Shown here: one piece after another, positions 9,001 to 12,000 of the stretch
How positions within the stretch are numbered: position 1 is the first letter of the stretch
How the letters are laid out: each line of letters opens with the position of its first letter
IMG/VR virus record: IMGVR_UViG_3300015174_000009
Strand: one strand, 5' to 3'
DNA: 14,490 bases
Source: a virus
Taxonomy: Duplodnaviria > Heunggongvirae > Uroviricota > Caudoviricetes
Program-made: the position numbers

Positions 9001-12000
9001 GGTTCCACATTCGCCATGCTCCGCATCACGTTTCTTTTTCTGACCTGCCGGACGTCGCACCGTGATGTACTCCGCCTTTCCCAGGCGAACCAGCACCTCC
9101 GCACACGGCTGTGCCACATCACGGATATCCCCGGCCCGGGCATCATGCGTGCCCTGCAGATATCGGATCTTTGCCATAACCTGTTACGGGAGGCGCACGC
9201 CTCCCGTCCTCCTTATCAGACTCAGCCGCCGGACGCACTGCCGTAGTTCACTCCGGTGATCACCGCCACCGCCGCAGTACGGCGACGACGCCAGTTGATC
9301 CAGCGCTCCGCACGGATGGCCACGCTGCCTGTCTGGAACATGGAAACCAGCTCCACCGGGGACGGCGTGGTACTGTCGCCGGTCGGCTCAGACTGCATTT
9401 CCAGTGATGCCTCGCGGGACATATCCACTGCCACGCCGCCGTCATCCGCCAGATAAATATCCGGGGCATTCACCAGCACCAGCTGGTCACCCACGTACTG
9501 GGAGACAATCACCGGCAGCCCCTGGAAGGAGCCACCCAGCAGGGTCATGTCCGGGTATTCCTTCTGACCCAGCGCATTTTTACGCATGGACAGTGCCAGG
9601 GCATTGGTGCTGGACATCAGCCAGACCGCACCGGTGGGCTGCAGGTTTGCTGCCACAAACTGTCCAAACGCAGCCTCTGCATCCGCATCCGGGTTACCGG
9701 TTGATGCCGTGCCCTTCACATCATGGGTGATGGACGCCGGGGAGACATCTGCCACTGCGGCTTTTTTCGGGTCCACAAAGTCTGTATCCAGACGCGCCAC
9801 CACCGCTTCCGCCAGCGCATTACGGACCAGTGCATCAGCAGCCGGACTGGAAAAACGGATCAATTCTTCCGTCAGTACCGCAATGGCCGACACCTTCGCA
9901 TGACTGAAGGTGATGGATTCAAAATCAAACTTCGTCAGGGGTTTTGCCTTACCCTCACCCACCCAGCCGGCAGCACCGCCGGACACCTGGGCGTGCACAC
10001 GGATATTGAATGGCACCTGACGAAGTGCAGGGATCCCGCCCTGACCAAATCGCCCGATAATGGTCTGCGGACGCAGGTAATCAATAAAGTCCTGTGCGTA
10101 TTCCTGATATTCAGACAGGCTGCCTGCCCACTGCGGATCCGTGGTGGTCCCCGCGCCCACTGCCGATTTCAGGACATGATGCAGACGACTGTCATCCGGA
10201 TACTGACGACGGGCCACTTCCAGGGCTTCAGATCGGACGCCTTTAGCCGCAGCCAGCGATTTGGCAAAGCGGGCGAAGCCAATCCCCTTATCCAGTTTCT
10301 GCTCCACACGGATCACCGGCGCAGAAGCCACCGCGGCCACATTCCCGTTACCGGCCTGTTTCACCGGCTGCGCCGTGGCGGCCTTACCGGCTTCCAGTTC
10401 ACGCAGGCGCTTCAGGTGCGCATCCACCTGACGGATTTCCGCTGCGGTGTTGTCGTAATGCTCTTCCTCCTCCACATCCAGCGTGCGCCCTTCCTCTGCG
10501 GCTTTGGTCATGACCTCCTCAAGGGAGGCTGCCAGCGCTGCACGCTTGTTTTCAAAACTTTTAATCTGTTCGCCAATATTCATTATGGTCTTTTCCTTAT
10601 GAAAAACGGTTGTTGACTGTGCCGCAGCGCCGGCAGAAGATGCGATTTTCACCACCGGTTTCCGGTTGCCGGACGCGGCAGAAAACGGGCGGTCGTAAGA
10701 TTTAATGGTCCGGATGGTGCATTCCGCATTCGCGGGCACGGTGACGGCAGACACCTCCATCAGTTCCCAGCGCAGAAAATGCAGTCCGCCTCCGTCCAGA
10801 AAGGTGTATTCATGGGGACGGAAGCCCACGGACAGCCCCCTGACCAGCCCGGTCTTAATGGCCGCCCAGACCTCATCCAGCCGGGCAGCCAGTTGCGACG
10901 GCATATCCGGTACGGGCTTCACCAGTGTTGCCGTGATTTCCAGCCCTTCGCTGACCCGGCGCACCGTACACTGCCCCACCGGGCGGGAATGGTCATGCTG
11001 CCAGAGAAACGGGATCGCACTGCCAAACTCCGCGCCCTCCGGCTCCAGGATGTCACCATCCCGATCCGGAGAAGGCGTTGACGCAATCCCGGTGATCACC
11101 CGTTCATCCTCACTGAAGGATTTCACCGTCAGCAGGGAACAGGCCCGTTTAAGAGTCACATCAGCCTCCTGAAAATAAAAAAACCGCCGGAGCGGTTCGT
11201 GATGGTTACAGTGTGAACAGGGTTATATGAAAAAAACCGCATATTCTTTCTTTTTCGGTTCCGGGTTAAGGGACATCAGGGAGACCGCATTGAACAGCGC
11301 CATCAGCGGGTCAATTTTTCCCCGTCCACTGGCCTGTTTGGTGATAAGAATGGCGTTACCTTTAGGCTCCACCCGGGCATTGCCGACACACCAGGCCATC
11401 AGGGGCTGGTCACCATGCACCAGCACCCCTTCAGCCAGTTTGCGCTCGGTGGTTTTAATGGCCCCGCCCAGTTTCCAGCCCTGGCTTATCCCCACCACAA
11501 TTCCGTCGGGGATCCCGGCTTCCGCCAGTGAATCCAGAATCTGCCCCACCCCTGACGGGTCAATACCGATATGGTCCAGTAACTCAGCCTCATGAATGCG
11601 ACGCACATATTCCGCCACTTCCGCCGTGTCATCCCCGACACGCCGGACAATGGTCATATCTCCACAGGCAACAAGATCCTGAAACCGGGACGCCTCGCTC
11701 TTCCGTCGGACCACCGCGGTTTCATGCGCCCAGGCATGGCCCCAGCCCAGCCATTCGCGGGTCTCCCGGTCACGCCCAATCACATACATCCCCAGCAGAT
11801 CATCCAGCCCTCCGCCGTCAATCCCCACCGTCACCACATCAGCACGACGCAGGATATCGTCCAGGCTGATACAACGGCCCTGCTCTTCCCAGAAATCAGC
11901 CCCCGCCCAGCGGTCAGAGCGCAGGGCAAGACCAATTTCCACATTGGCGTGTTTTGACATGAACCCCCGGAATGTCTCTTCACCGGCTTCCCGGGCTTTA

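Follow-up and report, generated by a model that had tools for sequence, protein, structure and literature searches.

Putative intrinsic terminators recur in the intercistronic gaps of the virion-gene operon carried by a 14,490-nucleotide (nt) stretch of Caudoviricetes DNA (IMG/VR record IMGVR_UViG_3300015174_000009; the window denotes this whole stretch). Each consists of a GC-rich hairpin followed by a run of U residues, a Shine-Dalgarno (SD) sequence and the start codon of the next gene, and modules of this kind precede the genes for the capsid, the tail tube and the tape measure protein. Sequence matches identify the window as the minus-strand virion-gene operon of a lambdoid Escherichia coli prophage of the Shiga toxin (Stx) type, the identity being 99% with vB_EcoS-705R7 and 96% with phage JLK-2012, and there are further matches to many Stx1a, Stx2a and Stx2c phages. 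The modules are probably conditional intrinsic (Rho-independent) terminators, which would stop unmodified RNA polymerase and be transparent to polymerase loaded with the antiterminator Q. A sequence-only reading of the same DNA had described two of them as look-alikes of intrinsic terminators that would need antitermination, or else as elements of RNA stability or translation, and the first of these views is supported as far as sequence alone allows, namely by their anatomy, by obligatory read-through, by the Q context and by the terminator labels of phage HK97.

From the perspective of their anatomy, the modules share stems of 5-9 base pairs (bp) that are rich in GC, loops of 4-5 nt and 6-7 contiguous U residues. 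On the minus strand, the module ahead of the capsid gene is composed of AACCGC (11197-11192), the loop TCCG (11191-11188), GCGG (11187-11184) and T7 (11183-11177), and the first U residues of its run pair into the stem base. The module ahead of the tape measure gene has the same arrangement, with AACCGC at 3798-3793, the loop TGAG at 3792-3789 and GCGG at 3788-3785. Both sequences, re-read at 11197-11159 and 3798-3759, are exactly those given before, and both hairpins are stable, as had been supposed, with folding energies of -10.9 and -9.1 kcal/mol and z scores of -3.4 and -3.0, respectively, against dinucleotide shuffles. The tail-tube module, which the earlier description had missed, reads CCCGC-CGCGT-GCGGG (5254-5240) and then TTTTTTATTATCAGGAGGCAGAATG, with a fold of -7.5 to -8.5 kcal/mol. 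Its discriminant is 32, that of the capsid module is 31-37 (positive, in line with the terminator that had been proposed there) and that of the hairpin between D and E of phage lambda, calculated for comparison, is 31; this discriminant is of the d'Aubenton-Carafa type, calculated with modern folding energies, and its values are indicative only. These hairpins are terminator-like only on the minus strand, which is the coding strand of all virion genes in the window, and on the plus strand they lack a following T-run.

The location of the modules is equally distinctive. Only four intergenic gaps exceed 40 nt (63, 44, 64 and 47 nt), and every one of them holds a hairpin, three with a terminator-type U-tract. 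The two modules recognised earlier had been placed in rare gaps, which is correct, and the list lacked the tail-tube module and a strong 9-bp hairpin at 9207-9186. The latter dominates the fold of its 44-nt gap (-24.3 kcal/mol), and its terminator discriminant is negative. The tail-tube module is the second member of a tandem pair, the first being the weaker terminator-like hairpin at 5295-5279 (discriminant of about 9). RefSeq annotates nothing in these gaps, and neither an open reading frame (ORF) nor a promoter-like site, as expected of an extra gene, was found in those of 47-64 nt. On the coding strand of the window, a simple consensus scan, which is not proof, detected no sigma-70-like site. 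In view of this result, and with just 16-25 nt between each U-run and the start codon that follows, transcription of the essential downstream genes has to pass through the hairpins.

From these features we infer termination of unmodified polymerase, override by Q and a benefit for the silencing of the prophage. Located in the small number of intercistronic gaps that a lambdoid late operon has, such terminators would release, at their U-runs, the transcripts of any polymerase that enters the structural genes without Q, be it through read-in, from the promoters of morons (extra genes with a promoter of their own) or by spurious initiation in the lysogen. Unless a processive antiterminator is at work, little polymerase would get past a series of three or four terminator-like signals. 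Polymerase that has acquired Q at pR'-qut would pass all of them, and the genes for capsid, tail tube, tape measure and distal tail would then be expressed only once Q appears. The hairpin and the U-tract may in addition affect the ends of the mRNA and the translation of the next gene. That polymerase modified by Q resists terminators is established (summarised in PMC7547250), and the window resembles the Q system in being a lambdoid late operon whose relatives carry Q upstream on the same strand. One of these is the Sakai prophage Sp12, where the layout from terL to the capsid gene is the same; in Sp12 and JLK-2012, moreover, the same chain of genes lies downstream of the lysis genes on the same strand.

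Whether a terminating ribosome would disturb such hairpins depends on how far the stem lies from the stop codon. In the case of tR2, this interference ended at about 27-30 nt, with variable outcomes at intermediate distances (PMC4824070). The corresponding distances are 24 nt for the capsid module and 27 nt for the tail-tube module, close to the 27-30 nt of tR2, where intermediates vary, and 5 nt for the tape-measure module. The preceding chaperone genes, G and T, are joined via a canonical -1 frameshift at the slippery sequence A AAA AAG (4121-4115), just ahead of the G stop codon, and because T is reached only by frameshifting from G, the RNA ahead of the tape-measure terminator would be mostly untranslated. 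The T frame is open from 4136 (frameshift region 4112-4139, minus strand), and RefSeq lists T as a separate gene.

Conservation provides a second line of evidence. The capsid hairpin is kept in 78 close relatives and the tail-tube module in 37, and among the former the capsid hairpin varies in its upstream spacer, in its loop, which is UCCG or UGCG, and at the base of its stem, where G in place of A still pairs with U. Some close relatives replace the tape-measure hairpin by AAAACCUGC-UGUG-GCAGGUUUUUUUU, in which a base pair has been inserted compensatorily. A more diverged set of 28 loci from other species was collected with a profile of the capsid protein. It includes 19 Enterobacterales loci whose gene is complete (52-77% amino acid (aa) identity in the capsid protein); all 19 have a hairpin and T-run 16-25 nt ahead of the capsid start, which favours the element that had been read from a single sequence, and one betaproteobacterial relative (51% capsid identity) has them too. 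The usual form in diverged loci is GACCCGC-NNNN-GCGGGUUUUUUCGUUUCAGGAGG, and the stems of Proteus, Arsenophonus and Phlomobacter differ from it. Eight loops occur (UCCG, UGCG, GCAU, UUCG, CACG, CUCG, CGCG and UCAG), and all Enterobacterales loci keep a contiguous U6-8 next to the stem, including those with a replaced stem sequence.

The pattern of substitutions is that of a structure under constraint. In an alignment of 22 sequences, 94% of the cells are paired, compared with only 31-56% in slid controls, and three pairs change on both sides, one instance being A-U in the E. coli clade against C-G elsewhere; none of 500 shuffles reached the covariation score. Mean identity amounts to 86.6% in the module, 72-75% in the adjacent terL and capsid coding DNA and 50-57% in the adjacent non-coding DNA. 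These comparisons indicate that the capsid module is under purifying selection. Further downstream in the diverged loci, ORFs with the sizes of tail tube (156-166 aa) and tape measure proteins (800-1160 aa) are preceded by hairpins whose stems are unrelated, and hairpins persist at these positions also in loci with tail genes that have no homology to those of the window. Among 87 terminator-like hits on the sense strand, 57% are followed within 45 nt by an SD sequence and a start codon that opens an ORF of 50 aa or more, as against 14% of random positions.

Several observations weigh against conditional termination. The tape-measure module, for which a terminator had likewise been proposed, has a discriminant that is marginal (about 9, for the core stem). 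Q and pR' lie outside the window, which ends before the lysis and Q region, and their presence is deduced from relatives. In seven alphaproteobacterial relatives with the same head genes the hairpins were not found, and therefore the element is not essential to this gene set. Every module directly precedes a ribosome-binding site (RBS), and the capsid cistron is bracketed by the 11198-11181 hairpin on its 5' side and by the 9207-9186 hairpin, which has no U-run, on its 3' side; in some relatives the tail tube cistron, too, has hairpins on both sides. A role in mRNA stability or in translation would predict this same pattern.

None of the alternatives need exclude conditional termination, and these two roles are the first to be considered. 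According to one of them, the hairpins serve mainly mRNA processing or stability, either as barriers to 3'-to-5' exonucleases or as protective 5' stem-loops once RNase E has cut the U-rich tract, and long-lived capsid and tail tube segments would build up from one long late transcript. The single-stranded stretch rich in U and A that follows each stem resembles an RNase E target. Hairpins flank the capsid cistron on both sides not only here but also in HK97 and lambda, they do the same for the tail tube cistron of HK97 and of the loci L084, L086 and L090, and terminators are reported to raise the stability of upstream mRNA (PMC11696848). An exonuclease barrier, however, has no need of a U-tract, yet a contiguous U6-8 is kept in all Enterobacterales loci; genes of low copy number are also preceded by hairpins (tape measure here, I and J in HK97), and the hairpin upstream of the capsid gene would stabilise the terminase mRNA, which is needed at low levels. 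Stability as the primary function is thus considered unlikely. Rather improbable is the proposal that each module is a translation-initiation cassette, in which the U-rich tract would act as a standby site or a site for ribosomal protein S1 and the hairpin would shield a strong SD from upstream pairing, raising the output of abundant virion proteins. It would account for the nearly fixed spacing between the end of the U-run and the SD (6-13 nt), for the almost identical segments between U-run and start codon in the capsid and tail-tube modules (UUUUUUAUU[U/A]UCAGGAGGC[U/A]GA), and for the segment from U-run to SD being the most conserved part of the gap (89.5% mean pairwise identity across 16 diverged loci). 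The same design, however, is also seen ahead of I and J of HK97 and of the low-copy tape measure gene, where the SD is weaker; an enhancer has no need of a GC-rich stem abutting a U-run, and in the loci L083 and L098 the hairpin and U-run are followed by a TATAAT promoter-like element of morons and not by an RBS.

Two further alternatives invoke mobile genes and small RNAs (sRNAs). The hairpins might be leftovers or docking points of morons, or linkers for recombination, without a role in the expression of the flanking virion genes. In HK97 the tape-measure hairpin follows the gp15 moron (PMC3594210), insertions of 440-840 nt lie beside equivalent hairpins in L083 and L086, and terL and capsid identities to the window are discordant among loci. 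Against this, the hairpins are present without a moron, in gaps of only 47-64 nt, and are more conserved than their coding flanks, unlike a neutral scar; overall, this explanation is quite improbable. The recombination linker in particular is rejected, as the clearest mosaic junctions in sliding-window identities lie about 900 nt inside terL, off the hairpin. The discordance between terL and capsid identities is explained by this sharp junction in mid-terL, about 900 nt upstream of the capsid start, which is seen between L083 and L084, whose identity rises there from about 0.6 to about 0.9, and between the window and L082. Finally, the modules could be the 3' ends of Hfq-binding sRNAs released from segments of the late operon. 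A stem with a U-run is the standard module for the proximal face of Hfq (PMC4104026), and antiterminated phage operons offer precedents (PMC7547250; bioRxiv 10.1101/2024.10.31.621285), such as the lambda sRNA PreS, the 3' end of which is the termination site tL2a, and StxS at tR'. A weak match to the isrK family (3778-3845, 27.1 bits) points in the same direction, but it scores far under 50, and IsrK sits downstream of Q and not among tail genes. Moreover, cross-linking and analysis of cDNA (CRAC) with Hfq shows no peak (EcOnc) at the gap between terL and the capsid gene of Sakai Sp12, in uninduced cells whose late operon is silent, and sequencing of ligated RNA pairs (RIL-seq) in lambda lists no lambda sRNAs other than PreS, LPR2 and 6S (bioRxiv 10.1101/2024.10.31.621285). 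An origin as sRNA ends is therefore barely credible.

Two candidate RNAs related to this last alternative have been discarded. The match to Rfam RF01394 (isrK, minus strand), the only one to a known RNA family in Rfam and one below threshold, falls short of the gathering score of 50 and has the wrong synteny, given that the IsrK locus lies just downstream of Q, and downstream of antQ in Gifsy-1. It is a full-length match that spans the 3' end of gene T and the terminator, and it is probably driven by the latter. The second candidate, the multicopy prophage sRNA HnrS (EcOnc10), is located at the 3' end of a ylcI-like gene upstream of the terminase genes of Sp12, and the equivalent segment of the window shows no alignment to it. 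A ylcI/ynfO-like ORF is present on the opposite strand (14081-14490, plus), and the window ends soon after it.

Putative terminators of this type are not confined to the present operon, and phage annotators have recognised elements of this class for more than 20 years. The closest parallel is HK97, in which the label 'terminator, putative' is found between portal and protease, after the capsid gene, before and after the tail tube gene, before the tape measure gene and, further on, before I and J. The sites next to the protease and capsid genes, after the capsid gene, ahead of the tail tube gene and ahead of the tape measure gene correspond to those of the window, with a GC stem, a loop of 4-6 nt, a U-run, and an SD and start codon within about 12-25 nt, among homologous tail genes that include a PF06120 tape measure and G/T chaperones. 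The labels reportedly go back to Juhala and colleagues (J Mol Biol, 2000). HK97 (NC_002167) differs in its stem sequences, in having separate protease and capsid genes after portal, whereas the window has a fused gene after terL, and in the gp15 moron that the tape-measure hairpin follows, which is not in the window. In lambda, GGCCGC-CUGU-GCGGC and U7 stand directly before the capsid gene E, and hairpins are also found after E, before J and after J. Both phages thus have a hairpin at the junction after the capsid gene, as the window does with the 9207-9186 hairpin.

Other systems are more distant. Unlike the single regulatory terminator tR', which is characterised and lies immediately past pR', the elements of the window are putative and lie 10-20 kb downstream, between virion genes. 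In Tn916 and in the conAn system of Gram-positive conjugative elements, insulating terminators keep element genes from premature or read-in expression and are overridden by a dedicated processive antiterminator (PMC11658703, PMC8191782); elements, antiterminators and hosts are unrelated to those discussed here, and the likeness is one of principle only. With the terminators of morons, the window shares the presence of a putative intrinsic terminator at the junction between T and the tape measure gene, the classic site of the gp15 moron (PMC3594210), but the extra gene with its own promoter that defines a moron was not found in the gaps of the window. A literature search for 3'-end mapping or functional tests of terminators within lambdoid late operons returned nothing directly relevant.

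The capsid and tape-measure modules had been described as nearly identical, which holds for the stem and the U-run and does not extend to a special relationship between them. The 21-nt pattern AACCGC-N4-GCGGTTTTTTT, searched for in the whole window with up to two mismatches, has just two matches, at 11197-11177 and at 3798-3778 on the minus strand, against 0.01 expected, and none of 200 shuffles contained two. Nevertheless, a common origin or duplication is rejected, because identity stops at the stem and U-run and the same stem recurs in at least 75 unrelated contexts. Among the matches listed for the same 17 specified bases in viral contigs, 103 of 122 are in contexts unlike those of the window; most of these listed matches have stable tetraloops, for example UUCG, and many again precede GGAG and a start codon. 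The shared stem followed by T7 has at least 75 distinct, unrelated flanks in at least 120 stretches of viral contigs. Judged by these comparisons, the two modules share a stem because terminators very often have this design, and not through duplication. A further copy of GCGGTTTTTTT at 11240-11230 (minus strand) was rejected as a hairpin: it belongs to T-rich coding sequence for the C-terminus of TerL, lacks a usable, stable 5' arm and folds with only -3 to -5 kcal/mol.

The features of the operon are compiled in the table. The gene that follows the first module had been called the capsid gene; the capsid part of this label stands, and the gene encodes a fusion of prohead protease and major capsid protein. 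Its N-terminus, MTLKRAC, agrees with that of relatives whose start codon is ATG. The GTG start overlaps a minimal ATG-TGA start-stop (11156-11161, minus strand), and relatives from other genera use ATG. Another terminator-like hairpin, GGCATGGT-GGTT-ACCGTGCC with TTTTTG after it, is located within the M coding sequence (303-322, minus strand; -13 kcal/mol, z score of -3.9). Two of the related loci, L083 (8800-8870) and L098 (17560-17630), share the promoter-like element CGCGCTTCACACGCGCACGTTATAAT downstream of a terminator hairpin, an order of elements that speaks for termination; in L083 the promoter-like element heads an insertion of about 700 nt between the tail completion and tail tube genes. 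This insertion looks like a moron docked on a resident terminator.

Table. Hairpin modules and genes of the minus-strand virion operon, with positions in the 14,490-nt window given in the direction of transcription.
Feature	Positions	Strand	Remarks
terS	13444-12881	-	
terL	12884-11223	-	stop 11225-11223
Capsid-module hairpin	11198-11181	-	GAACCGC-UCCG-GCGGUUU
Capsid-module U-run	11183-11171	-	U7 (11183-11177), then AUUUUC
Capsid-module SD and start	11170-11157	-	AGGAGG (11170-11165), spacer CUGAU, GTG 11159
Prohead protease-major capsid fusion	11159-9222	-	645 aa; PF04586 and PF05065
9-bp GC-rich hairpin	9207-9186	-	no U-run; 14 nt past capsid stop
73-aa ORF	9177-8956	-	
Portal	9010-6749	-	
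Four head-tail joining genes	6752-5282	-	tail completion gene stop 5284-5282
Weaker hairpin	5295-5279	-	AGGUCAC-GGU-GUGACUU and U-rich tail; overlaps tail completion stop
Tail-tube module	5254-5215	-	CCCGC-CGCGU-GCGGG (5254-5240), U6 (5239-5234), AUUAUC, AGGAGG (5227-5222), ATG 5217; starts 27 nt past preceding stop
Major tail (tube) protein	5217-4501	-	
Tail chaperone G	4486-4112	-	
Tail chaperone T	4088-3807	-	stop 3809-3807
Tape-measure hairpin	3801-3780	-	(GAG)AACCGC-UGAG-GCGGUU(UUU)
Tape-measure U-run, SD and start	3784-3757	-	U7 (3784-3778), spacer, GGAG (3771-3768), ATG 3759
HK97-type tape measure protein	3759-517	-	1080 aa; PF06120
M (minor tail gene)	524-183	-	

Taken together, the element appears ordinary in kind, and it is real, conserved and functional-looking. 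What is added here to the known class is the third module, the bracketing of the capsid gene by hairpins, the conservation statistics and a common design in place of shared ancestry. A bolder view would regard the units of hairpin, U-run and RBS as a conserved, interchangeable 'lock' cassette, which makes each virion block individually dependent on Q-modified polymerase, is set preferentially before the most strongly translated genes, offers a terminator that docking morons borrow and might yield short regulatory RNAs during induction; as a whole, this view is speculative and rather doubtful. The modules themselves are widespread, being found in 1233 of 5426 complete E. coli genomes (about 23%), in up to seven copies and also in Stx1, Stx2a and Stx2c prophages, and the conserved ones, with 19 of 19 Enterobacterales loci in the case of the capsid gene, form a clean and small set of elements. 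If they are conditional terminators, they would help to explain the silence of costly virion genes in cells with many lambdoid prophages, as well as the processivity of antiterminators over 20 kb or more.

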